From IMG/VR virus record IMGVR_UViG_3300042294_002813, positions 1 to 64,000 of that record: 64,000 nt of DNA; one strand, 5' to 3'. Under the pieces are notes generated by a model. It did no database searches. It was not told the origin of the DNA and worked only from the letters and a program-made list of their open reading frames with translations. The first letter of the stretch is position 1, and each line of letters opens with the position of its first letter. This document shows, piece after piece, positions 2,190 through 40,221 of the stretch. The position numbers and the translations under genes were made by a program. The stretch is from a virus.

Positions 2190-3383
2190 TTAAAACACAA
2201 TCTCGTTAGCCTGCTTGATCTTTTCTTCAAGAGATGCATCCGTCGTTGCTGTAGACGTTTCCGTATTAGCAACAACAGGAGCATTAGCCTCTGCATCAAT
2301 CTTTGTATACAGATCCATGAACGAAGTCTTGGTGTCAAGATCAAAACGATTCAGACACAGACGAATTGCCTTCATGCGATCACGACTGAAGATCTTGTAT
2401 GCGTCGCAAATATGCACAAGACGACGAGTGGAAATAATCTCGGTCGTGCCGCCATCGTAATAGGTACGACGAATTGCATCTGCCCACTTGATAAGCAGCT
2501 CAACAAAGGTCTTGTCATCCTCCGTACGATCCAGAAGATTATGTAGAATCTTCTTCTCGGTTACGGCAGGCGGATACTCCTGCTCCATCGTGATAGAGAA
2601 ACGTTCCAGAAACGCCTCGTTCATGACGTTAGTGCCAATGAAGCGGCCATCGTCAGAACCACGACCCTTGGTATTTGCAGTAGCGATTACAGTAAATCCA
2701 CGAGCCGGCTGAACCAGCTTGTTGATCTTCTTGATGAAGACAGACTTGCCTTCAAGCACGGGCTGAAGACACATAAGCTTGATGGTACCAAGGTCAACCT
2801 CGTCCAGAAGAAGAACCGCACCACGCTCCATCGCCATCACAACGGGACCATTATGCCACACAGTCTGACCATCGACAAGACGGAAACCACCAATCAGGTC
2901 GTCCTCGTCAGTCTCAGCCGTGATGTTCACGCGAACCATCTCGCGGCGAGCCTTGGCACAAGCCTGCTCGACCATCATGGTCTTGCCGTTGCCAGACAGA
3001 CCAGTGATATAGACTGGATAGAACATCTTGGATGAGATGATCGACTCAACATCCGAGAAGTTACCAAAGGGAACGTAATTCTTATTGGGAGTCGGAATCA
3101 AAGACTCCGAGATGTTTGTACCAATAGTCTGAAGATTCATCGTAGTTGCCTGTGGCATAGGAGTTTCCGAAACAGAAGGTATAGGAGTTTCTACAGCACC
3201 AATGCTGGGAAGTTTATAGACACCGCGAGAGTGACGATACTGATCGTCAATCGCGATCCACCTAGGCCACTTGAAGTTATGAGCGCGGCAAAGTTCCTTG
3301 GCATCCTTGCGAGAAATGGTAGTCATATACCCGTTCTGGTTAGCCAGTCGAATGAAAGCAATCTGCTTTTCCGTAAGCGACAT
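2190..3383 (-). CDS. MoxR/CobS-like AAA+ ATPase
   Basis: Walker A GLSGNGKT, Walker B LLLDEVD, ATANTKG, NEAFLERF, ISTRRL; start at 3383 (SD GAGGA). Confidence 0.9.
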   Translation of the reverse strand: MSLTEKQIAFIRLANQNGYMTTISRKDAKELCRAHNFKWPRWIAIDDQYRHSRGVYKLPSIGAVETPIPSVSETPMPQATTMNLQTIGTNISESLIPTPNKNYVPFGNFSDVESIISSKMFYPVYITGLSGNGKTMMVEQACAKARREMVRVNITAETDEDDLIGGFRLVDGQTVWHNGPVVMAMERGAVLLLDEVDLGTIKLMCLQPVLEGKSVFIKKINKLVQPARGFTVIATANTKGRGSDDGRFIGTNVMNEAFLERFSITMEQEYPPAVTEKKILHNLLDRTEDDKTFVELLIKWADAIRRTYYDGGTTEIISTRRLVHICDAYKIFSRDRMKAIRLCLNRFDLDTKTSFMDLYTKIDAEANAPVVANTETSTATTDASLEEKIKQANEIVF

Positions 3384-3408
3384 ATTTTCCTCTATCAAGT
3401 TATAATTT

Positions 3409-3437
3409 AGTATACGATATATGATTGGTATAATCAA
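3409..3437 (-). promoter_or_regulatory. sigma70-type promoter for the MoxR gene
   Basis: TTGATT-17 nt-TATACT. Confidence 0.7.
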
Positions 3438-5764
3438 GCACTAATTTTCTCAATGAACCGGGAAAGAACAATACGATTGTCCAACTTGTTCTTGGAATAC
3501 TTGGCAAAGACCTTCGCAATGCTCTTTGCTGTAGTTGCCTTACCAAGATTAAGTTCGGTGGTCTGAATGTTCATCTCCTCAGCCTTGAGAATGTAGTACA
3601 CCGAATAACCAAGATTGGTAACTTCAATGTACTTGTTCTTTACATAGTCCTTATACAGCTTCTCGACCTGATTTGGATCTGCTGAATACTGTGAGAAAGA
3701 CATGGAATTCACTCGACCGGAATTTATATAGTATCCAATCACATTCGTTCCAGTTCTTTCGCGCAGACGATTCAAGAAGATTGCCGTTGTGGCAGATTTA
3801 TCCCACAGATTATCGACAACAGCTTCACTCTTGGTAACGGTATCACGAAGAACCACATCTTGAGTATATGGATTATAGCCCTTGTTCCTAACCTCAATAC
3901 TGTCTGTATCCTCGCCATCGGTAAGAATGACGGTGTTGACGATCTGAAGCTTATGCTTCGCACGAAAAGCATTGACAATGCTTGTCGCACAAACAATAGT
4001 CGCATCCAAAGGAGTAGAACCGAAAGTAAACGGCCTGATATCTACAGCAGCATTCATTTTCCTAAAGAACTTGCATAGCATCAGAAGATTACCAATAGCC
4101 TGATTGAACTCGCCTTCCTTCATCCTTGAAGACAGCAACTGAAGCAGAGACAAGCTTGAATTGATAAGCAAATCACCATCCTTGTATGAATGCTGACGTG
4201 CTTCGATAGCACTGATCTCTTCGGCGGACATATTCTTATGTCCATATACATTTGAAAATGCATAAACGTCAAACGGAATCTGAACACGCTTGCAGAACAT
4301 GACCATATTTACAAGCTGCTCAATCAATCCAGAAATTGAAGTTGTCATCGATCCAGACCAATCAATGAACATGACAAGTCCATGATTCTTTCCGGTAGGC
4401 ACATTGGTGATGCGCTTGAACAGGTCATCATTATACTTGTAGGTATGCAGCTTGTTGGTATTGATCACACCAGTCTTGGAAATTGACGAGCGAGAATAGG
4501 TATCAGCCGCCTTTCGCATCTCAAATTCCTTGACCATGTATGAAATTACCGCAGCGTTCTCCGAACGGAACTTGATGCACTCTGCAAGAACCTGCTCCTT
4601 GGTATGACCAGGAATAAATCCATATATGTCGCCGCGACGAGCCACCTCAGAAAGACCGACGAAGCCATTGCCACCATCATGAACCTGCTTGTAAGGCACA
4701 ATCCAATTATGACCGTTGACCTCGGGAATGTTTACATAAACATAGCCCTTGGTCCCTTCCCTAACGAGTTCATCCTTCTTGGATTCCCAAGACTCCTGAG
4801 TCTCGGAAGTCGGATTCTGTCTAAATCCCTCATCAAGAGGAGACTTGGTCTCCTGATCGGAAATTTCATCTTCGTCGGAAGAACTGGTCTCCGAATCATC
4901 ATCTTCGGAATCAGAAGAACCCTCCTCTTCATCGTCCTTGCCGGATTCACCAGCAGAACCTTCATCCGAAGTCTTGCCGTCAGACTTGTCGGATTCATCT
5001 GAGTCATCGGAATTTTCCGAAGAAGAATCGTCAACCTCATCAGATTCTTCACCAGACTCCTCGCCAGACTCGTCTTCATACGGCATGGAAAACTCACCAC
5101 TCTCATCGGGATAGAACTCCGAATCGTCGTAATAGTTTTCCTCGTCATTCTCAGGCTGATCTTCCTTATGTTCCTTACAATAAGTATAGATTGCCTGAGC
5201 AGCCTTGACAACGTCGTCAAAGCTTTCGCAATTCTCAGCCATTTCAACCAGCTTCTTTTCAGCCGGAGTGAAGTCGATGATGATTGCAGAACCAAGCTTC
5301 AAATGAAGATTGATGCGGTCAATCAGACCGTAAGACTTGATGCTACGTCCAGCGGTGCCAAAGAAATTGCGATCCAGCAAATCCTTATAGCCAAGGGAGA
5401 AGGAACGACGCATACCAGGATAACGACGACGCACAAGCTTCTCAATGCGACCGTCTTCGATCACATTCAAAAACATCTTGGAACCGCGAGGGTTCTTGGC
5501 ATCAATCGATTCGATGGCATTCTTTAGAATATCCGCTGACGGCGGAGTGTCAAGAGCGTGACCGACCTCGTGTCCGACGAGCGTATCATAGATGTTGCCA
5601 GTCATGTTCTTCCAAATTGGAAGGACAAGAAGACGCTTCTCAACATCAAAATACGCCGTGCGAACCGCACGATGCTCGACGGTCAGGTTTTCGTTTGCCA
5701 TGAGACGCGCAAGCTGACTCTTGGCTTCCCTATGAATTTGGGAGTTGCTGTTTTCTGTCATCAT
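3434..5764 (-). CDS. CobT-like protein: N-terminal HExxH domain, acidic linker, C-terminal vWA domain
   Basis: HEVGH, EDGRIE, long D/E/S-rich linker, MIDAS DWSGSM, TPL, LTDGE; adjacent to MoxR ATPase; start moved to 5764. Confidence 0.85.
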   Translation of the reverse strand: MMTENSNSQIHREAKSQLARLMANENLTVEHRAVRTAYFDVEKRLLVLPIWKNMTGNIYDTLVGHEVGHALDTPPSADILKNAIESIDAKNPRGSKMFLNVIEDGRIEKLVRRRYPGMRRSFSLGYKDLLDRNFFGTAGRSIKSYGLIDRINLHLKLGSAIIIDFTPAEKKLVEMAENCESFDDVVKAAQAIYTYCKEHKEDQPENDEENYYDDSEFYPDESGEFSMPYEDESGEESGEESDEVDDSSSENSDDSDESDKSDGKTSDEGSAGESGKDDEEEGSSDSEDDDSETSSSDEDEISDQETKSPLDEGFRQNPTSETQESWESKKDELVREGTKGYVYVNIPEVNGHNWIVPYKQVHDGGNGFVGLSEVARRGDIYGFIPGHTKEQVLAECIKFRSENAAVISYMVKEFEMRKAADTYSRSSISKTGVINTNKLHTYKYNDDLFKRITNVPTGKNHGLVMFIDWSGSMTTSISGLIEQLVNMVMFCKRVQIPFDVYAFSNVYGHKNMSAEEISAIEARQHSYKDGDLLINSSLSLLQLLSSRMKEGEFNQAIGNLLMLCKFFRKMNAAVDIRPFTFGSTPLDATIVCATSIVNAFRAKHKLQIVNTVILTDGEDTDSIEVRNKGYNPYTQDVVLRDTVTKSEAVVDNLWDKSATTAIFLNRLRERTGTNVIGYYINSGRVNSMSFSQYSADPNQVEKLYKDYVKNKYIEVTNLGYSVYYILKAEEMNIQTTELNLGKATTAKSIAKVFAKYSKNKLDNRIVLSRFIEKISA

Positions 5765-5770
5765 GTGGTT

Positions 5771-5799
5771 AGTATACTCTGCTGTTTTGGTAAAGACAA
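5771..5799 (-). promoter_or_regulatory. sigma70-type promoter, probably giving a leaderless mRNA
   Basis: TTGTCT-17 nt-TATACT, with the ATG starting 7 nt downstream of the -10 box and no SD. Confidence 0.65.
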
Positions 5800-5841
5800 G
5801 GACTTTTTTAGTCCACCACATATCTATATTGGAATTGCGAA

Positions 5842-6540
5842 TTAGTCCTTGATGGCAATGAATCCAGTAAATGCATAGTTTTGCCAGAATGTATCAATTG
5901 AATTCTTGTTGAATCCTGCCTCAATGCACATATTGATCAATTCATCTCTGGTATTTGCCTTCAACATGGAACGAAGCTTCTTTTCCTTGGTCATGATATC
6001 ATCATACTCAAAACTCTGACGTTTGAAGTCATAGTATGTGAAGGTTCTCATCTCCTGAATTAGGGAATGATTCGACAAAGTCTTTTCAGCAAAGATGAAT
6101 GCTCCACCAGGAATTAGACTGTCATAAATTTGGTTTATGACATTTTGACGATCTTGCCTTGGCATGAATTGCAAGGTAAAGATTGATGTCACCAATGAAG
6201 TCTTGGCTGAAAATTCGACCTCGCGAACATCACCGCAGAAAAAACCAAGATTTGATGGAATGTTATTGTTTTCAGATTCTTGAAAATGGGGATAGAAATC
6301 TTCTTCGATTTCAATGCCAATATATTGGGCTTTCTGAGCAATAGTCTTGTTCTGTTCAATCATTGCCTTGAGCATCTTGCCCGTCGAACAACCAATATCG
6401 TACACAATGGTATCGTTTTCAACAAAGTACTGCGAAAGATTGATGACATCACCAATTAGATCATTGTACCCACGAATTGACTGACTAATGTGATTATCAA
6501 AGCCCTCTTCGCGCTGGGCAAAGGTAAATTTCTGTGTCAT
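5842..6540 (-). CDS. cmoA: CmoA-like carboxy-S-adenosylmethionine synthase
   Basis: Colinear CmoA motifs: FTF, SIRGY, VYDIGCSTG, GDVRE, FTLQF, IYDSLIPGGAFIFAEK, YDFKR, AGF..WQ. Confidence 0.82.
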   Translation of the reverse strand: MTQKFTFAQREEGFDNHISQSIRGYNDLIGDVINLSQYFVENDTIVYDIGCSTGKMLKAMIEQNKTIAQKAQYIGIEIEEDFYPHFQESENNNIPSNLGFFCGDVREVEFSAKTSLVTSIFTLQFMPRQDRQNVINQIYDSLIPGGAFIFAEKTLSNHSLIQEMRTFTYYDFKRQSFEYDDIMTKEKKLRSMLKANTRDELINMCIEAGFNKNSIDTFWQNYAFTGFIAIKD

Positions 6541-7328
6541 CTATTGCTCCAATCCTTGCAAATGTCCATGATACGTTTTCTTTTACGATAGTTGATCATT
6601 ATATCAGGTATCAGAACAGAGTCAAACAATTTATCTATTCCAGATCCCAGTTGCAGATTGATATGCTTCTTGACACCACCAAACTGTGCAAACTCGACAA
6701 ATGCTTCTACTACATGATGCTTTTGGTATGGTTGATTGAGTTCGTACCAATCTTTGCTCCAAAAGAATTCTTTTACTGCATCCGTGAGATATGGAGTTAT
6801 GAATGTCTTGTTGTGTCTATCGGCAATTTTCTTGTGCCAAAGATGTCCTGCACGATGATCAATCTTGAAATAGTCTTCTCTAAACTCGTTGAATTTTTCC
6901 ATCGTATGCTTATAGTGTATGTTTGCTTTCTTCGATACGCCATAGTAACCATCAGCTGCCCATCCACTCAAAACTTCGGTCTCTTCTATTTGTGGATACA
7001 CATATAGAAATGGAAAACAACATTCATAGTGTGTCTTCTTTACACATTCAATTTCACGACGAAGACGCATGAAATCATTTGATACGTTGTCAGTTGGAAC
7101 TTCTATTGTCTTGCATGACCAACCCATGATGTTGCATATTTCATTTGCTTTTTGTGCATCATATGTTGGTTGATCTTTTAGATGAAAAGTATACGCTGTG
7201 ATCTTCTTACCCAGCCTATGAGCGGCAAGAGCCACAGAAATGCTATCAACGCCGCCGGATAAGAGTACAGCGACGTTGACATCCTTTGAAGATTTTTCTA
7301 GTTCATCGCATAGTATTTTGTCTATCAT
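6537..7328 (-). CDS. Asparagine-synthetase-like (PP-loop) ATP-dependent amide ligase lacking the glutaminase domain
   Basis: LLSGGVDS PP-loop, YTF, VLSGWAADGYYG (cf. SGEGADE), TPYL, QK. Confidence 0.75.
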   Translation of the reverse strand: MIDKILCDELEKSSKDVNVAVLLSGGVDSISVALAAHRLGKKITAYTFHLKDQPTYDAQKANEICNIMGWSCKTIEVPTDNVSNDFMRLRREIECVKKTHYECCFPFLYVYPQIEETEVLSGWAADGYYGVSKKANIHYKHTMEKFNEFREDYFKIDHRAGHLWHKKIADRHNKTFITPYLTDAVKEFFWSKDWYELNQPYQKHHVVEAFVEFAQFGGVKKHINLQLGSGIDKLFDSVLIPDIMINYRKRKRIMDICKDWSNR

Positions 7329-8541
7329 TATATGGTTTCAAAACATTCTCATAAATGCTGCTTGCCAATGCAGCCATCATCTTGGGCGCGACCATTCGAC
7401 CGATACGTTCGGCTTGTTGATCAAAATTACCAGTAAGAACAAAGTCCTCAGGAAGACTCATGATACGCTTCAATTCCTTGATCGTGAACTTTCTATTTTC
7501 GGCATAGTGAAATACACCTGAGACAGATTTCTGTTGTCCACGTTGTGTCAACGTAGGACATGGAAGATCTGGACATGGACGAATCATGTTGAAACATGAT
7601 GCCTTTGGATTCCAATCGCGGTATTCCTTGTCGGAAGGCTTTGTGTGTCTTGTAGGATTGAATGGAAGTTTCGTGATCCAATCTTTTTGAAATCCTCCCA
7701 TGACATAGTCCTTGAGTTCTTGAATCTCATTTGGATCGTTTTCTACATCTTCGATAGCTTGGCGAAGCGTCACATGCTTTGTATGTGTTGGATTAGGAAA
7801 CACGATTGAATGCATATTCAGAAAGTTCAAATCTAGAGCATCACAAACATCTTCACGAATGCATACGAAAAGAGTGCGCTCTCTACCTTGCGGAACTCCA
7901 AAGTCTGCGGCATTCAAGACTTGATATGTTACTTGATAGCCAATCTTTTCAAACGAGTTGATGAACTCATACAGCTTTTCTTTAGCTTCACCAAAAGTGA
8001 TACCCTTGACGTTCTCGGCAACAATTACCTTTGGCTTGATTTCTTCGGCGATGCGAATGAATTCAAGAAACAGGTTTTCAATACTCTCGACAGTCTTTCC
8101 GTCCGAGTACTTCTTAACACCTTCTTGAACTTCAATATCACCTTCTTCAATGACATTGCCTTCGTCGTCAAAATATGAATTGCGTGTATCTTTGACATAT
8201 CCAGCCCAACCCTTTTCTCTCTTGCCAGCAACAGAAAATGCAGAGCATGGAGGTGAGCCATCAAGTAAATCAAGTTCACCTGGCTTTAGACCAGCCGTCT
8301 CTAGAAAGTCCTTACCTGTCAATTTCTTGATGTCGCCGGGAATGATCTTTGTATCTGGAAAATTTGTCGAGTATGTCTTGATTGCTTCTTCAACGAATTC
8401 ATTGATTGCAATGATATTTCCACCCGCAAGACGATAGCCGGTGGAAGATCCACCGCCACCTGCAAATGTGGAAATGACGTTGAACAGTCTTCTCGCTGAA
8501 GACTCTTTTACATCGGCAACAGTATATTTCTGGTACATCAT
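7303..8541 (-). CDS. C5 DNA cytosine methyltransferase-like enzyme (possible carboxymethyltransferase)
   Basis: Motif I FAGGGG, IV GSPPCSAFS, VI ENVKG, VIII QGRERT, TRD PTLT, IX RKFTIKELKRIMSLP, X IGRMV (atypical). Confidence 0.9.
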   Translation of the reverse strand: MMYQKYTVADVKESSARRLFNVISTFAGGGGSSTGYRLAGGNIIAINEFVEEAIKTYSTNFPDTKIIPGDIKKLTGKDFLETAGLKPGELDLLDGSPPCSAFSVAGKREKGWAGYVKDTRNSYFDDEGNVIEEGDIEVQEGVKKYSDGKTVESIENLFLEFIRIAEEIKPKVIVAENVKGITFGEAKEKLYEFINSFEKIGYQVTYQVLNAADFGVPQGRERTLFVCIREDVCDALDLNFLNMHSIVFPNPTHTKHVTLRQAIEDVENDPNEIQELKDYVMGGFQKDWITKLPFNPTRHTKPSDKEYRDWNPKASCFNMIRPCPDLPCPTLTQRGQQKSVSGVFHYAENRKFTIKELKRIMSLPEDFVLTGNFDQQAERIGRMVAPKMMAALASSIYENVLKPYNDRQNTMR

Positions 8542-8560
8542 ATCATCCCATAAAAAACGT

Positions 8561-8566
8561 ATTATA
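8561..8566 (-). promoter_or_regulatory. Possible -10 box for the modification operon
   Basis: TATAAT about 20 nt upstream of the MTase start; -35 region is weak (TAGAGA). Confidence 0.4.
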
Positions 8567-8573
8567 CATCAAA

Positions 8574-8783
8574 TCAATCGGTTTCTCTATACTTATTTTT
8601 CGTTATTTCGTTCCAATATGAATCATCATCTTCCAATTTCCTTGCAATCTTATATAGTCTAATCATATGATCACTCATGTTGTCTTCGCCGTGAACATTG
8701 ATTAGTCTATCGCGAAGCCAATGCAAAAAATCACTATCACTCATCATGAGATTATCCCAATACATGAATTCACTTTGAATCAT
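8574..8783 (-). CDS. Hypothetical protein
   Basis: Fills the gap between coupled genes; FLHWLRDRLINVHGE is a plausible small phage protein. Confidence 0.5.
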   Translation of the reverse strand: MIQSEFMYWDNLMMSDSDFLHWLRDRLINVHGEDNMSDHMIRLYKIARKLEDDDSYWNEITKNKYRETD

Positions 8784-9345
8784 TTCTAGTCATCTTAATA
8801 CGCATCTTGCGTTCTTTTTCTCTTGCCATCATCAGAGTAGTTTTACCAACTCTCTCGGTAAAGCAAATGCCATCAAGATGATCATATTCGTGCTGAATGC
8901 AACGAGCGGTAAGACCAGTAAACTTGTCTTCTTTCCATTCACCACTAACGTGTTGATACTTGACCTTGATTTCTTGTGGACGAGAAACTTTGAAGAATAG
9001 ACGTTTGAACGTCAAGCAACCTTCAAGATGATCATCTTCTCTTTGAGATCTTTCAATGATTTCTGGATTGAAGAATACCTGCTTGTTCGTATTGTCATAT
9101 CCAACGACAAATACACGATAAGGTATGCCAACTTGCGGCGCAGCCAAACCAAGACCACTATGCTTGAACATCGTCTCGAAAAGAGATGACGCAAGATGAA
9201 TTGGATCAATTGGCGGATTTGCAAAATCAAATGGCTTGCAAACTTGCTTCAATACTGGATCCGTAGATTTGACTAGATCATATATTTCATACGGTCTTAT
9301 TGTTTGCGCCGCCGTATTGATCTTTAGCATTCCGTTTTCTATCAT
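8770..9345 (-). CDS. def: Peptide deformylase
   Basis: GLGLAAPQVG, EGCLT, QHEYDHLDG; start at 9345 (SD GAGG). Confidence 0.93.
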   Translation of the reverse strand: MIENGMLKINTAAQTIRPYEIYDLVKSTDPVLKQVCKPFDFANPPIDPIHLASSLFETMFKHSGLGLAAPQVGIPYRVFVVGYDNTNKQVFFNPEIIERSQREDDHLEGCLTFKRLFFKVSRPQEIKVKYQHVSGEWKEDKFTGLTARCIQHEYDHLDGICFTERVGKTTLMMAREKERKMRIKMTRNDSK

Positions 9346-9352
9346 CTTATCC

Positions 9353-9649
9353 TCACTTGATATTTGCAATCAAAGCCACATCTTCTTTATCAGCCAAATA
9401 ACATCTGGCACGATAGATCATATCAAATTTATCCGAATGAGATTCTTTTGTAAATAGTACAAGATTTTCCTTCAACAATGTTCTAGCCATTTCGTTGGCT
9501 AGTTTTTCTTTTATGAGATCTTCGAAGATCTGCTTCTTGTCTATCGACATATTTTCTAACCAAAATTCTGTCACAGTATGTTGTACCGTCACAATCTTGG
9601 TTTTTACTGCATGCGTTTGAACATTGGAAGAATCATCATTATACATCAT
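9353..9649 (-). CDS. Hypothetical protein
   Basis: 98-aa ORF with ATGA overlap with gp46. Confidence 0.55.
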   Translation of the reverse strand: MMYNDDSSNVQTHAVKTKIVTVQHTVTEFWLENMSIDKKQIFEDLIKEKLANEMARTLLKENLVLFTKESHSDKFDMIYRARCYLADKEDVALIANIK

Positions 9650-11361
9650 TTCACAATCCTTGAAAAATTATTGATCTTTTCAAACTTGATTATTGATCTA
9701 AACTTGTCAAACAAAATATCGCCCTTGTGACTAATAACAAAAACATTGGTATCACTACTTATGGAGTTCAAAATCTTCAGTAGTTCTTCCGTTCCATTTG
9801 AGTCTAATGAACTATCAAAGATTTCATCCAGTATCAGCAAATTGGTATTCACGCTATTCTTCATCTTGGCAATTGCTCTCCAAGTGAATAGTAGTGCCAG
9901 ATCGATCTTTTGCTTTTCGCCTTCGGAGAAATTCTCGTAGGCAAATTCATCACGATGGCGAGACTTGATGACCTCCTCAAAGCTTTCATTGATATTGAAA
10001 TTGACATAGAACTCCATGCTACTCAAATACTTGTTGATTAGCTTGTTCATGACTGGAAGATATTGCTTTATGATCTTGGTTTTGATACCAGTATCTTTCA
10101 GTAGAATAGAAACTTGTTCATGATGATGCTTATCATTGACCAATCTCTTCTCGTCTTCAACAAGATCATTCAGTTGCTTTTCAAGTGCTTTTAGATCATC
10201 AGTATGCGTTGTGTCTATTGTCTTGTTCTGCTCAATGGTATCAATTTCTTTTTGTAGCTTCTGGATATAACCATTGACTGCAGTAATAGTTGCATTTTTT
10301 TCCTGAGACTTGAATGTCTTGTCCTTTATCTTTTTCAACGTCTTTTGGATCTGAGCAATTTGCGTATTGATCTTCTCCAATTCATTATCTATTTCCTTAA
10401 GACCATTGCCGTATTCTGCAATCTTGTCTTGAAATGTCTGAATCTGGGTTTTCTTGAAATCTTCGCTAATTGATTGACGACATGTCGGGCAATCATCATT
10501 GGTTTCATAGAAATTAATTTCGCTCTGTGCCTTCTCGGCATTGTCTTGTATCTTGACGATGAGACTGTTTAGCTTGTTGGACTTGCCAACCAGCTTCTTC
10601 TCACCAACGACTTCAGATTGAAGCTTAACGATCTCTTGATCAAGAGACGCCTTTTCTTTTTCCAAAGTAACTATTTGAGATTTGCTATTTGCAATGTCTC
10701 TTTGTGTCTTTTCAATATGAAGAGTTTTTGTATTGGTAATCTCATTGATCAACTTTTTCGTTGATTCGATCTTGACCTTTACAACTTCCCTACGATGAGA
10801 AACGTCACTCATCTCATCCTTGATTGCTTGAAGCTTTTGCTTCAATACAACATTCATGGACGAAAAGATTTGTATATCCAAAAGATCTTCTATGATTGCA
10901 CGACGATCTGCAGCAGACAACTGCATGAACGGAACAAAGGTAGATGAACCAAGAACTACGATCTGGGTAAACGACTTGTAGTTCATCTTGAGAATGAACT
11001 TTTCAAGATACTCTTGGTAATCTCGCGAAGACGCATCTTGATTGACTAGTTCATTGTCACAATAGATTTCAAACTTGCCCGGCTTGATTCCGCGAAGGAT
11101 CTTGTAGGATTTCTTACCTATTATAAACTCTATCTCGACAACGCAGTCTTTTTCATTGACGCTATTCAATAGCCCTGGCTTATTGATACCGCGAAATGGT
11201 TTACCAAATAGAGCGAAAGTCAACGCATCCAAGAGTGTTGACTTTCCGCTTCCATTGTTTCCTACGATTAGTGTTGTAGGAGATTTGTTTAGTGTAATCT
11301 CCGTGAAGTCATTTCCTGTAGAAAGAAAGTTTCTCCAACGAACTTTTTCAAAGAGTATCAT
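9646..11361 (-). CDS. gp46: Recombination ATPase subunit (Rad50/SbcC-like)
   Basis: GNNGSGKST, CPTC zinc hook, FSEGEK signature, LDEIFD, ISHK. Confidence 0.95.
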   Translation of the reverse strand: MILFEKVRWRNFLSTGNDFTEITLNKSPTTLIVGNNGSGKSTLLDALTFALFGKPFRGINKPGLLNSVNEKDCVVEIEFIIGKKSYKILRGIKPGKFEIYCDNELVNQDASSRDYQEYLEKFILKMNYKSFTQIVVLGSSTFVPFMQLSAADRRAIIEDLLDIQIFSSMNVVLKQKLQAIKDEMSDVSHRREVVKVKIESTKKLINEITNTKTLHIEKTQRDIANSKSQIVTLEKEKASLDQEIVKLQSEVVGEKKLVGKSNKLNSLIVKIQDNAEKAQSEINFYETNDDCPTCRQSISEDFKKTQIQTFQDKIAEYGNGLKEIDNELEKINTQIAQIQKTLKKIKDKTFKSQEKNATITAVNGYIQKLQKEIDTIEQNKTIDTTHTDDLKALEKQLNDLVEDEKRLVNDKHHHEQVSILLKDTGIKTKIIKQYLPVMNKLINKYLSSMEFYVNFNINESFEEVIKSRHRDEFAYENFSEGEKQKIDLALLFTWRAIAKMKNSVNTNLLILDEIFDSSLDSNGTEELLKILNSISSDTNVFVISHKGDILFDKFRSIIKFEKINNFSRIVK

Positions 11362-37869: not shown

Positions 37870-39072
37870 TCAAGTACTATGAAATTTTCTTAAAACGCCT
37901 ATTTTATAATTGTGATAATAACTAATTAGTCCATCATATACTTGCCCATGCGAATAAACAAAAGGTCTTGCTCGCTTGACAACCTGTTTTAAACCCTCTC
38001 TCCATATAAGATTTGCCCTATTATCAACATATCCATCAATAAACCAAGTGTCAAAATCCGTGTGCCAATCAAAAATACCTTTATCAGCTTGAAACCAAGT
38101 CTTATTCCATGTAGTGTACAATATTGGTCGAAGAAGCCTTTCGCTCACAAGTCTAAGAAATCCAGGTACCATATTTCTTGGTGTTTGAAGACTAAAAAAG
38201 TTTCTTAGACCAGGATCAATTTCAATACATTTTTTTATTAAATGGGCTTGCTTGCATAACATATCACATGCATCAGGACTCCAATAAAAATATTCAACCG
38301 TCGTATTTGTATAGTCTTTCATATATTCTCCAACAGGAGATATATTTGTTAATCTATCTGAAAACCTTAAGTAAACAAAGTCATTAGTATCATCAATAAC
38401 AACTTTTGGTTTATCAATCCCCATTACAACTGCAATCTTTTTATCTTTGTCAACTCTTTTTCTAAAGTCTGAAAAATGAATATAATTGTATCTCGTAACA
38501 TCAACAGGATTAAGTTCCTCACGCATTTTCAAAAACCAATTTTCTTCAGAATTGGCAAATGAATCAAACAAATGATCCGTCATATCATAGACACTAATCT
38601 TTGTCTGTGGAGCAATTGCTTGTATTTCTTTTATTCTTGGAATTGCCTGCAGCTTATGTTCCGATGCATGTGCATATTTTGCATCAGTAACATTAGGATC
38701 AATTACAGCAAATTTTTCATTTCCTTTGTCCAAACAATTTACAATAATTTCATCTATATGAAGGTTTTGACGAAGAAAAGACATTACAACATTATGACTA
38801 TCTGCTCCGCCACTATAACTAATTATGATATAGTCATATTTTTCACGAAGTTCTCTTGCTCGTTTATTGTAAAGTTGATCCAATGTCGCTTCGGGTTCTT
38901 GAAGCCAGTTATAATTGGAAAAAATATCTTCGTTGAAATACCATTTGACAAGACTAAGAGGATCTACATTTTCCTTGACATTGTTGGCAATATGCGTTGC
39001 AAAGATACACGCATGAATTTTTGATTCCAACTCTTTTTTACCAACAGTATAATAACCAAGTTTTTTATTCAT
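37870..39072 (-). CDS. PP-loop adenine-nucleotide alpha-hydrolase family protein
   Basis: RARELREKYDYIIISYSGGADSHN, GIDKP, EYFYW, KQAH. Confidence 0.65.
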   Translation of the reverse strand: MNKKLGYYTVGKKELESKIHACIFATHIANNVKENVDPLSLVKWYFNEDIFSNYNWLQEPEATLDQLYNKRARELREKYDYIIISYSGGADSHNVVMSFLRQNLHIDEIIVNCLDKGNEKFAVIDPNVTDAKYAHASEHKLQAIPRIKEIQAIAPQTKISVYDMTDHLFDSFANSEENWFLKMREELNPVDVTRYNYIHFSDFRKRVDKDKKIAVVMGIDKPKVVIDDTNDFVYLRFSDRLTNISPVGEYMKDYTNTTVEYFYWSPDACDMLCKQAHLIKKCIEIDPGLRNFFSLQTPRNMVPGFLRLVSERLLRPILYTTWNKTWFQADKGIFDWHTDFDTWFIDGYVDNRANLIWREGLKQVVKRARPFVYSHGQVYDGLISYYHNYKIGVLRKFHST

Positions 39073-39542
39073 TGTGTGTTTGAAGTATTTGCACTTGAAT
39101 TGTTTAGAAGTTCGTTAATTAGATTTTCAATATGATCTTCACTCAATGTACTTTCTGTATTTGCATTCGTATCAATAGTATCAATAGAAAATACTGGTTT
39201 GATGGCATCAAATTCTGTATTTAATAGATTGGAAACAACATTTAAGGAAGTATCTATTTGAGGATCGAGAATATCGTGTCTTAGCTTAAACCAATCATAA
39301 GGCGCTCCGTCGTTTGCAATTTTCTTAATTTGCTCTTCCGTAATAGGAGGATCAGTTTGCCATATATTGAAGTTATAATCTGTTTGACATCTTTGTGGTG
39401 ATCCATCGCTTCTTCTAGCTATAGTCCCATCTGGATTGTATGATGTTGCTAGACTATCTTCAGTTAGCAAATTAGTATAGTATCTCACGATCATTGAGTG
39501 CTGTGAAGAATCAACATCAATTATTTTAAACTTGACTTCCAT
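39069..39542 (-). CDS. Hypothetical protein
   Basis: 157-aa ORF coupled (ATGA) to the PP-loop gene; late promoter upstream. Confidence 0.6.
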   Translation of the reverse strand: MEVKFKIIDVDSSQHSMIVRYYTNLLTEDSLATSYNPDGTIARRSDGSPQRCQTDYNFNIWQTDPPITEEQIKKIANDGAPYDWFKLRHDILDPQIDTSLNVVSNLLNTEFDAIKPVFSIDTIDTNANTESTLSEDHIENLINELLNNSSANTSNTQ

Positions 39543-39573
39543 TTCCCTACTCCGATATATAACTATGTATCTT

Positions 39574-39581
39574 TATTTATA
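39574..39581 (-). promoter_or_regulatory. T4-type late promoter
   Basis: TATAAATA upstream of 39542. Confidence 0.7.
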
Positions 39582-39603
39582 ATGACCCAACTTGAGGAAA
39601 ATA

Positions 39604-40221
39604 ATGTACAAAGACATTACAAATAATCCAGAGGAAAGAATGTGTACAACATATAGTTGGGCATATTGGGATAATGCATTTTCTGAAGAAGAATTAACAA
39701 ATTTAGAAAGATACTGTCAAATAGAACAAACAGAAAAAGCAACTGTTGTTGGTACCAATGACATTAACGAAACAGAAAAGATAAGAAAATCAAGAATTAA
39801 ATTCTATAGTAAAAATGAAAATAATGCATGGTTTTTTAATAGAGTAAATGAAATAAGCAAAATTATAAATGAAAGCTACTACAATTATGAATTAAACGGA
39901 TATGCTGATTTCCAATACACAGAATATCATGGTAATGAAAGTGGTGAATATAACTGGCACATGGATATGCTTCATGGTCAAAATAAATTTAATATAACAA
40001 GAAAATTGTCTCTTGTAATGTGTTTGTCCGATCCGGAAAAAGACTTTGTTGGAGGAGAATTTGAAATCAATGTGGGAAATCAAGAAGAACCCGAAACCAT
40101 ATTAATGAAAAAAGGTAGAATGATATTCTTTCCTTCATACATTATTCATAGGGTAAAACCAGTGACCAAGGGCATTCGTAAAACAATAGTAATTTGGATT
40201 ACTGGTCCTAAATTTGTATGA
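39604..40221 (+). CDS. 2OG-Fe(II) oxygenase (prolyl-hydroxylase-like)
   Basis: QYTEY, WHMD (HxD), RKLSL, GGEF, FPSYIIHRVKPV, RKTIVIW; SD GAGGA. Confidence 0.9.
   Translation: MYKDITNNPEERMCTTYSWAYWDNAFSEEELTNLERYCQIEQTEKATVVGTNDINETEKIRKSRIKFYSKNENNAWFFNRVNEISKIINESYYNYELNGYADFQYTEYHGNESGEYNWHMDMLHGQNKFNITRKLSLVMCLSDPEKDFVGGEFEINVGNQEEPETILMKKGRMIFFPSYIIHRVKPVTKGIRKTIVIWITGPKFV

Follow-up and report, generated by a model that had tools for sequence, protein, structure and literature searches.

Gene content and organisation of the locus

The window analysed here is a stretch of 64,000 nucleotides (positions 1 to 64,000 of IMG/VR record IMGVR_UViG_3300042294_002813). Its minus strand carries three overlapping genes, homologues of cmoX, cmoY and cmoA, and two promoter-like sites:

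7303..8541, minus strand: cmoX homologue, DNA cytosine C5-carboxymethyltransferase family; 412 aa; matches to PF00145, 8YF3 and S-B43 CmoX
6537..7328, minus strand: cmoY homologue, AMP-forming amide ligase family; 263 aa; matches to PF00733 and S-B43 CmoY
5842..6540, minus strand: cmoA homologue, carboxy-SAM synthase family; 232 aa; matches to TIGR00740 and S-B43 CmoA
6598..6625, minus strand: candidate internal sigma-70-type promoter in the 3' end of cmoY; TTGACT-16 nt-TATAAT, 11/12 positions
8561..8589, minus strand: weak promoter-like site, candidate only; TAGAGA-17 nt-TATAAT, 10/12 positions; about 20 nt upstream of the cmoX ATG

The open reading frame list and the sequence agree with the first-pass annotation on the position and overlap of the three genes: cmoX and cmoY share 26 bp (7303-7328), and the start codon of cmoA lies over the stop codon of cmoY in a 4-bp ATGA (6537-6540), with GGAG 8 nt upstream of the cmoA ATG. 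The families that it had named, a C5-methyltransferase fold, an asparagine-synthetase-like ligase lacking a glutaminase domain and a CmoA-like protein, are recovered by matches to PF00145, PF00733 and TIGR00740, respectively. The neighbours of the cassette are peptide deformylase/gp46 and CobT/CobS, and the same trio in the same order and with the same neighbours is found in 13 IMG/VR loci (L005-L017) at 75-100% protein identity, indicating that the arrangement is not due to chance. A 69-aa open reading frame immediately upstream (8574-8783) is syntenic within the clade of the window; it was rejected as a part of the cassette, having no similarity to the small open reading frames flanking the S-B43 cassette and no Pfam match.

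The genome is that of an uncultured marine phage of the T4-like type. Its capsid comes nearest to those of pelagiphages, Methylophilales phages and Stenotrophomonas phages and not to those of cyanophages. This phage lineage has a permuted tmRNA, the tag of which we take to be of the alphaproteobacterial type. Megablast found no match for the 2.7-kb region among 50,697 phage records, and blastn gave only short stretches of 66-76% identity, in seven records, six of them from Synechococcus phages and one from a Moraxella phage. A close cultured relative is not among the records searched. The source record comprises 73,160 bases with a CheckV completeness of only 41%; within it, no second C5-methyltransferase was found and, as the first-pass annotation had reported for the window, no cmoB (TIGR00452, E <= 0.001), the latter absence being weak evidence because the record is so incomplete. 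A second PP-loop protein in the window (37870-39072) was considered as another CmoY-type ligase and rejected (best E 1.4, no Pfam match); it has only a faint match to WbuX (E 0.0031).

Conserved residues and divergence of CmoX

The product of cmoX belongs to the C-5 DNA methylase family (PF00145, E 1.5e-57) and scores above the cut-off of the generic dcm model TIGR00675 (162.8 against 100.65 bits). Its match to PDB entry 8YF3, the CmoX of Synechococcus phage S-B43 (SpCmoX), is far stronger (E 2.5e-109) than the next, to M.HaeIII (4.9e-26), and the two CmoX proteins are 49% identical over their full length (E 2e-128). The SPPC motif (in DGSPPCS), with the nucleophile C99 corresponding to C98 of SpCmoX, is kept in all 80 IMG/VR CmoX relatives. 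The canonical motif-X Asn of C5-methyltransferases (N304 in M.HhaI) is absent and is replaced by R382 (IGRMV), which aligns with the carboxylate-binding R350 of 8YF3; an Arg is present at this position in 10/10 aligned homologues, as are the CmoX motifs, and in 79/79 IMG/VR loci covering motif X, the 80th being cut short. In SpCmoX, R350 likewise takes the place of M.HhaI N304, and the wild-type enzyme accepts Cx-SAM only while the R350N variant accepts neither cofactor (PMC12783734).

The cofactor contacts F26, E48, F49 and D70 correspond to F25, E47, F48 and D69 of SpCmoX, with SpCmoX residue numbers counted along the pairwise alignment of the two proteins. These contacts are invariant in the homologue alignment, as are ENV 176-178 and Q218/R220/R222, which include the cytosine-contacting Glu and Arg, and every Cx-SAM-binding and catalytic residue named for SpCmoX (F25, E47, F48, D69, C98 and R350; PMC12783734) is kept in the window protein. 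Divergence is found elsewhere: motif IV is followed by an insertion of 19 aa (approximately residues 122-140) that S-B43 CmoX lacks, and the target-recognition region (229-350) is 39% identical (43/109), compared with 58-68% for the catalytic core.

Family and fold of CmoY

CmoY matches Asn_synthase (PF00733, E 5.2e-12) over residues 14-146, which align with profile positions 15-148 of 354; its PP-loop, SGGVDS, occupies residues 24-29. It consists of the synthetase domain of asparagine synthetase only, without the N-terminal glutaminase domain, and is 50% identical to S-B43 CmoY over the full length (266 bits, E 4e-94 in a two-sequence BLAST). Weaker Pfam and NCBIfam matches are to the PP-loop domains of QueC, LarE, MnmA and NAD synthase. 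Phmmer against PDB sequences gave nothing at E <= 0.01, and only a fold search placed the protein: its AF2 model (pLDDT 71.3, moderate; pTM 0.77) has as its best Foldseek match E. coli AsnB (1CT9, E 1.4e-7, TMq 0.67-0.69), followed by beta-lactam synthetase, carbapenam synthetase and human ASNS, the alignments spanning about 250 columns, with targets of about 500 residues.

A set of 48 distinct CmoY sequences, which includes the window and S-B43 proteins, has 49 positions with an identity of 95% or more. In the published similarity network (threshold E 1e-56, about 30% identity), members of the SpCmoY cluster keep the residues that bind the glycine carboxylate, and the ligases of other clusters differ in their active-site residues (PMC12783734). 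Judging from its pairwise score of 266 bits, the window CmoY would share the SpCmoY cluster under that threshold.

Carboxy-SAM synthase homologue CmoA

CmoA matches TIGR00740 (E 7.2e-31) at 107.7 bits, under the curated cut-off of 193.3, and NF011995 at 79.9 bits, under the cut-off of 285. S-B43 CmoA, which has been assayed and makes Cx-SAM with a kcat of 2.33 per s (PMC12783734), also fails both models (115.6 bits for TIGR00740, 102.0 for NF011995), indicating that the curated models do not cover the phage clade. The window protein is 49% identical to S-B43 CmoA over the full length (235 columns, E 1e-73) and matches phrog_4752 (E 2.8e-56) and the PDB CmoA/YecO entries 1IM8, 4GEK and 4IWN (E 5e-20 to 3e-19).

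In E. coli CmoA, Arg199 forms a salt bridge to the carboxylate (PMC3663124). By MAFFT and phmmer, which are sequence alignments only, this residue aligns with the Glu of a phage KEKxLR motif in which an Arg follows four residues downstream. The active S-B43 CmoA has the same Glu at the Arg199 position and the same Arg four residues later; since it shares both the low model score and this mismatch, the mismatch weakens the test more than it weakens the identification of the window protein as CmoA.

Linkage and gene order in other genomes

The expectation that the three families would occur together in phage genomes holds in IMG/VR, where 62 of 80 loci with CmoX relatives also encode CmoA, 56 encode CmoY and 50 encode both, always on the strand of CmoX. 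The trio is found on one strand in at least five orders (A-Y-X, Y-X-A, X-Y-A, X-A-Y and A-X). In eight IMG/VR loci (L018-L025), RNase H has a CmoY homologue (62-66% identity) as its neighbour, and CmoX and CmoA are both missing from the surrounding sequence to a distance of about 5 kb; neither was found in the four of these contigs that were searched whole (L018, L019, L020 and L022; 6-20% complete).

Candidate promoters

The site at 6598..6625, in which a TG precedes the -10 hexamer by one base and which ends 57 nt upstream of the cmoA ATG, is the best promoter-like site within 3000-10000, and its sequence suggests that it may act as a promoter for cmoA. Sites with at least 11/12 positions number nine in the window, compared with 3.66 +/- 2.1 in shuffled sequences. 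Seven relatives (L009-L013, L017 and L026) have instead a 12/12 site, TTGACA-16-TATAAT, 14 nt further upstream, a position at which the window scores 8/12 (counted by hand). The site at 8561..8589 falls in the 32-bp gap after the 69-aa open reading frame and is not distinguishable from chance, since sites of the 10/12 type number 23 in the region and 17.3 +/- 4.5 in shuffles.

Proposed pathway and alternative readings

The locus is very probably a cmoX-cmoY-cmoA cassette with which the phage hypermodifies its own DNA after replication, a reading based on homology, conserved catalytic and cofactor residues, the CmoY fold and gene linkage, with the chemistry taken from the S-B43 orthologues. In S-B43, CmoA makes Cx-SAM, CmoX writes 5-carboxymethylcytosine (5cxmC) at GC sites (Yang et al., Nat Commun 2025;17:281, PMC12783734) and CmoY ligates glycine to 5cxmC in DNA, giving 5gcxmC both in vivo and in vitro (PMC12783734). 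By analogy, CmoA of the window would convert SAM and host prephenate to carboxy-SAM (Cx-SAM). CmoX would flip out a cytosine, attack its C6 with Cys99 and transfer the carboxymethyl group of Cx-SAM to C5, the carboxylate being held by Arg382, to form 5-carboxymethylcytosine. The PP-loop of CmoY would then use ATP to adenylate the 5cxmC carboxylate and couple an amine, most likely glycine, yielding 5-glycylcarboxymethylcytosine, a bulky base that may shield the phage DNA from host restriction enzymes.

The first-pass annotation had arrived at the same scheme, from Cx-SAM through 5-carboxymethylcytosine to an amide. Each step has been demonstrated for the S-B43 orthologues (PMC12783734), to which the window proteins are 49-50% identical with the Cx-SAM-binding Arg kept, so that the window cassette is predicted to be active in the same way. 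It had left the amine as ammonia, an amino acid or a polyamine; the amide stands, and in S-B43 the amine is glycine, for a total of dC+115 Da and not the suggested dC+57 (PMC12783734). That the window CmoY also couples glycine is the somewhat favoured assignment, by analogy with SpCmoY.

It is possible, though on balance doubtful, that the same enzymes make another product, with CmoY coupling another amino acid, ammonia or a polyamine, with CmoX acting at a motif other than GC, or both. The window CmoY is only 50% identical to SpCmoY, the CmoX recognition region is 39% identical and carries extra insertions, other ligase clusters have active sites of their own, and the sequence specificities of other CmoX proteins are not known (PMC12783734). 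Site statistics bear on the same question: among 4-mer palindromes the most strongly avoided is GGCC (28 occurrences against an expected 57.2), and the median observed/expected ratio of 6-mer palindromes is 0.58 for those containing GC (n=23) and 0.85 for the others (n=41), all of these being small counts. Such avoidance of GC sites is not what long-standing full protection of them would predict and would fit an incomplete or different protection, but the statistics are not diagnostic. On the side of glycine, the score of 266 bits would put the window CmoY in the SpCmoY cluster, with its glycine-carboxylate-binding residues (PMC12783734), and 49 positions are nearly invariant in a set of sequences that includes both proteins. 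A GC target is not established for the window CmoX, given the recognition-region divergence and the 19-aa insertion, and GC is best taken as a prior for its motif, by analogy with S-B43.

Two further readings depart from this pathway. CmoX might be an ordinary SAM-dependent 5mC methyltransferase, as its score on TIGR00675 would allow, with CmoA serving host tRNA cmo5U synthesis through a host CmoB or depleting host SAM and so blunting SAM-dependent defences; SAM depletion by CmoA was raised as an open question in PMC12783734, and the record is incomplete. This is very improbable in view of Arg382 at the motif-X Asn position, since SpCmoX with the same Arg took Cx-SAM only (PMC12783734), of the presence of cmoA beside cmoX in most of the 80 loci, and of a carboxylate-activating ligase lying between cmoX and cmoA in a record where no cmoB is seen. 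Alternatively, CmoY might be a PP-loop enzyme whose substrate is a small molecule, RNA or peptide and which merely travels with the cassette, as its weaker PP-loop matches and the eight loci with an isolated CmoY homologue might suggest. The four contigs searched whole are so incomplete that CmoX and CmoA may lie elsewhere in those genomes, SpCmoY converts 5cxmC to 5gcxmC in DNA (PMC12783734), and the window cmoY is translationally nested between cmoX and cmoA, all of which makes a ligase acting away from DNA hardly credible.

Comparison with known systems

The window and S-B43 have in common the three families, with a full-length identity of 49-50% for each, the SPPC Cys, the carboxylate-binding Arg and four named cofactor contacts, a PP-loop ligase without a glutaminase domain, and genes on one strand with overlapping ends. 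A cmoB is seen in neither (in S-B43 according to PMC12783734; for the window in a record 41% complete). They differ in gene order, which is X-Y-A in the window and A-Y-X in S-B43, and in neighbours, which in S-B43 are a primase-helicase and a MazG-like pyrophosphatase in place of the peptide deformylase/gp46 and CobT/CobS of the window. The window CmoX is further set apart by its insertion and diverged recognition region, and its phage backbone is pelagiphage-like and not that of a cyanophage, with the cassette here known from sequence alone. Synechococcus phages S-CRM01 and RN05-S encode CmoX and CmoA 49-50% and 49-53% identical to those of the window, respectively, with the same GRMV motif X; unlike the window, their cmoA-cmoX pairs have no cmoY between or beside them, and their pathways presumably stop at 5cxmC.

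The E. coli CmoA/CmoB pathway to tRNA cmo5U likewise begins with the formation of Cx-SAM from SAM and prephenate, and the window CmoA, although only 27% identical to its E. coli counterpart, keeps Y39, D62, G64, S66 and F137. The acceptor in the window would be C5 of DNA cytosine and not tRNA ho5U, no CmoB is found in the record, no Arg of the phage clade aligns with Arg199, and the phage protein lies under the NCBIfam equivalog cut-off. Engineered M.MpeI N374K, a DNA carboxymethyltransferase cited in PMC12783734, resembles CmoX in having a basic residue in place of the motif-X Asn and a C5-methyltransferase fold that uses Cx-SAM; this likeness is by description, and the enzyme differs in being engineered, in having Lys instead of Arg and in its CG target. 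The CmoY model superposes on the ATP-dependent synthetase domains of AsnB and of beta-lactam and carbapenam synthetases (TMq 0.60-0.70), with the PP-loop in common, whereas CmoY lacks their N-terminal glutaminase domain, is 14-17% identical to them and, by analogy with S-B43, would act on a DNA base as its acyl substrate where theirs is a free amino acid.

Significance

From their sequences, the three proteins are clear relatives of the S-B43 enzymes, and the trio appears to be a further copy of an anti-restriction system that is already known. The suspicion in the first-pass annotation that related phage chemistry had been reported was justified: the S-B43 system was published in December 2025 together with the CmoX structure (PDB 8YF3) and a survey of databases, IMG/VR among them, covering 5,615 CmoX candidates (PMC12783734). 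Among the literature searched, the natural system is described only there; a term search of PMC7824862 gave no mention of CmoA, carboxymethyl or DUF1611. The finding therefore has little weight as a discovery, as pathway, crystal structure and survey are published and the contig is itself an IMG/VR record.

A more far-reaching proposal, advanced tentatively and rather unlikely to hold in full, is that the cassette of this lineage may make an undescribed base, through a CmoX motif other than GC or a CmoY amine other than glycine, and that cmoA may be expressed from its own host-type promoter inside cmoY, meeting the demand for Cx-SAM. The locus adds a marine T4-like phage, with a capsid nearest those of Pelagibacter, Methylophilales and Stenotrophomonas phages and not those of cyanophages, to the carriers of the cassette with all three enzymes, and its CmoX is a variant with a diverged recognition region, of the kind named in PMC12783734 as needed for establishing which sequences the family targets and which amines it uses.

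A CmoX-CmoY-CmoA cassette on the minus strand

Three minus-strand genes lie in a long minus-strand gene run, and their families were named with Pfam, NCBIfam and PHROGs:

7303-8541, minus strand: cmoX, 412 aa, C-5 cytosine DNA methylase (PF00145, E 1.5e-57, Pfam)
6537-7328, minus strand: cmoY, 263 aa, asparagine-synthase-type PP-loop protein (PF00733, E 5.2e-12)
5842-6540, minus strand: cmoA, 232 aa, CmoA-like protein (TIGR00740, E 7.2e-31; phrog_4752, E 2.8e-56)

In the ORF list and the sequence, cmoX and cmoY overlap by 26 bp and cmoY and cmoA by 4 bp (ATGA), matching the first-pass annotation exactly in coordinates and overlaps; the family matches likewise bear out its C5-methyltransferase (C5-MTase) fold, PP-loop ligase lacking a glutaminase domain and CmoA-like protein. 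CmoY carries its SGGVDS PP-loop at residues 24-29 and starts at the synthetase domain, and is therefore without a glutaminase domain.

A literature search found one paper that settles the identity of the cassette (Yang et al., Nat Commun 2025;17:281, PMC12783734), the survey in which used IMG/VR. In Synechococcus phage S-B43, CmoA converts SAM and prephenate to carboxy-SAM (Cx-SAM), the C5-MTase homologue CmoX puts a carboxymethyl group on DNA cytosine at GC sites, and the asparagine synthetase homologue CmoY joins glycine onto the 5-carboxymethylcytosine with ATP; 5-glycylcarboxymethylcytosine is present in S-B43 phage DNA (PMC12783734). The crystal structure 8YF3 has the carboxylate held by Arg350 of S-B43 CmoX (SpCmoX), of which the wild type takes Cx-SAM only and R350N takes neither cofactor (PMC12783734). 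The suspicion that related phage chemistry had already been reported was thus well founded, and the pathway deduced from the raw sequence, Cx-SAM-dependent carboxymethylation of cytosine followed by amidation, is correct and specific in that it matches the S-B43 chemistry, which the window copy would share.

All three window proteins match their S-B43 counterparts over the full length: CmoX with 49% identity (E 2e-128), CmoY with 50% (E 4e-94) and CmoA with 49% (E 1e-73). Against all PDB sequences, the top match of window CmoX is 8YF3 (E 2.5e-109), followed by M.HaeIII (E 4.9e-26). Counted along alignments, SpCmoX residues F25, E47, F48, D69, C98 and R350 correspond to F26, E48, F49, D70, C99 and R382, and the ENV and QxRxR motifs are retained. 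A Foldseek search (E 1.4e-7 to 6e-6, TMq 0.55-0.70) matches the CmoY model (pLDDT 71.3, pTM 0.77) to E. coli AsnB, beta-lactam synthetase, carbapenam synthetase and human ASNS, in each case to the synthetase domain. Window CmoA scores 107.7 bits on TIGR00740, under the NCBIfam cut-off of 193.3, and phage-clade CmoA has Glu aligned with E. coli Arg199 and an Arg four residues on (MAFFT, phmmer); in E. coli, Arg199 binds the carboxylate (Byrne et al. 2013, PMC3663124). The active S-B43 CmoA also falls under the cut-off and has the same Glu and displaced Arg, so the Arg199 comparison speaks neither for nor against function. Judged by sequence comparison, the cassette is a new, uncharacterised copy of the published CmoX-CmoY-CmoA system.

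Linkage of the three families

An IMG/VR scan with window CmoY returned 22 loci. Thirteen (L005-L017) share one layout of gp46, deformylase, a 69-aa ORF, X, Y, A, CobT-like and CobS-like genes, one (L026) ends within Y, and eight (L018-L025) have the CmoY homologue only. A second scan, with a CmoX alignment, kept the best 80 of at least 518 relatives (57-100% identity), several on contigs shared with loci of the CmoY scan, and gene arrangement was read within up to 6 kb on each side of CmoX. Among these best 80 the arrangements were Y-X-A (34), X-Y-A (14), X-A (12), X alone (12), Y-X (6) and X-A-Y (2), always with all cassette genes on the same strand; some X-alone and Y-X loci stop within about 1 kb of CmoX, and in six of the 12 X-alone loci the sequence runs on for 2.9 kb or more on both sides. 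CmoA was found in 62 of these 80, CmoY in 56 and both in 50, so the linkage on which the first-pass annotation had staked its reading does extend to other genomes. SPPC is present in 80/80 of the same best relatives, and the motif X Arg in all 79 that reach motif X. Gene order is A-Y-X in S-B43 and A-X, without the ligase, in S-CRM01 and RN05-S, giving at least five orders overall.

In L017, a relative of the window cassette, a 478-aa ORF (3563-4999, plus strand) lies between cmoX and cmoY. Its N-terminus weakly matches the GmrSD_N/DUF262 type (E 3.6e-4) and its C-terminus HNH_5 (E 3.3e-3), so that a homing endonuclease and an accessory gene of the ParB/GmrSD kind are both candidate identities. 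ParBc-domain genes are common next to CmoX (PMC12783734). The CmoY homologues of L018-L025 (62-66% identity; e.g. L019 4777-5559) adjoin a T4-type RNase H, and neither CmoX nor CmoA was found within about 5 kb of them or in four whole contigs searched, which are 6-20% complete.

The jumbo Erwinia phage pEa_SNUABM_17 (L031, MZ443777.1 11706-22557; L035, 118-2271) has a five-gene cluster. It encodes a homologue of CmoA (phrog_4752, E 3.4e-80), a protein of 420 aa faintly similar to glycosyltransferases, a DUF1611 protein, a protein resembling alanine racemase, and a homologue of CmoY that shares 34% identity with window CmoY. Its sole C5-MTase, about 15 kb from the cluster, has LGRV as motif X. 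Its SPP is separated from the following C by about 380 inserted residues, the last two being HN, so an intein seems to sit immediately ahead of the catalytic Cys. Erwinia, inteins and racemases go unmentioned in the main text of PMC12783734.

Amid the tail-fibre genes of the window, 37870-40221 encodes a 400-aa protein, a 157-aa partner ORF and a divergent 2OG-Fe(II) oxygenase (PF13640, E 1e-16). The 400-aa protein has no Pfam match and only a faint WbuX amidotransferase match, and comparison ruled it out as a CmoY relative.

Target motif and amine

The recognition region of window CmoX is 39% identical to that of SpCmoX, against 58-68% in the core, and in the window's clade 19 aa are inserted into CmoX behind motif IV; a GC target is here a prior and not a result. 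The window holds 2,719 GpC dinucleotides, with 22.4% of all cytosines in this context. GGCC is its most avoided 4-mer palindrome (28 seen against 57.2 expected, ratio 0.49, z -3.9), and CATG, TCGA, TTAA and GTAC are likewise depleted, but not GATC. Nine 6-mer palindromes are missing, and depletion of 6-mer palindromes is, if anything, stronger for those with GC in them than for the others. Had GC sites long been fully protected, such avoidance would not be expected, although the counts are small.

Identity reaches 95% or more at 49 positions across 48 CmoY sequences, those of the window and S-B43 among them, and by bit score window CmoY would fall in the S-B43 CmoY network cluster. The amine that it would join is somewhat more probably glycine than another.

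Promoter-like sites

Of the sigma-70-like sites in 3000-10000, the top one falls within the cmoY 3' end, 57 nt ahead of the cmoA start (TTGACT-16-TATAAT preceded by TG; 11/12 positions). Seven relatives are without this site; theirs is a flawless TTGACA-16-TATAAT located 14 nt farther from cmoA, a position at which the window scores 8/12 only. A promoter-like site that shifts position yet persists among relatives suggests that cmoA, which comes last in this cassette, may be driven by a host-type promoter of its own. Sites matching 11/12 or better number nine in the window against 3.66 +/- 2.1 in shuffles, eight of them on the coding strand. The sole 12/12 site (TTGACA-17-TATAAT) starts at 2186 on the minus strand, just downstream of the AAA_5 ATPase gene.

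Phage backbone and host

The source record (73,160 bases, 41% complete by CheckV), whose first 64 kb form the window, belongs to a T4-like myovirus with gp23, scaffold protein, gp20 portal, gp18 sheath, gp17 terminase, UvsW and UvsY. The cassette is flanked upstream by gp47, gp46, peptide deformylase and the 69-aa ORF and downstream by a 795-aa protein and an ATPase with an AAA_5 domain match, which we take to be CobT-like and CobS-like.

The nearest major capsid proteins (64-66%) are those of Stenotrophomonas phage DLP_6, Pelagibacter phages HTVC008M and Mosig and Methylophilales phage Melnitz, and the top Synechococcus phage reaches 63%. ARAGORN found no tRNA or tmRNA genes within the 64-kb window, and a permuted tmRNA in the last 9 kb past it (L116 5227-5615, minus strand; record 69227-69615), with the tag ANDNYASEMALAA, presumably of alphaproteobacterial type. 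Given these capsid relatives and the type of the tmRNA tag, and bearing in mind that permuted tmRNAs are also found in some cyanobacteria, the host of this phage is probably other than a cyanobacterium.
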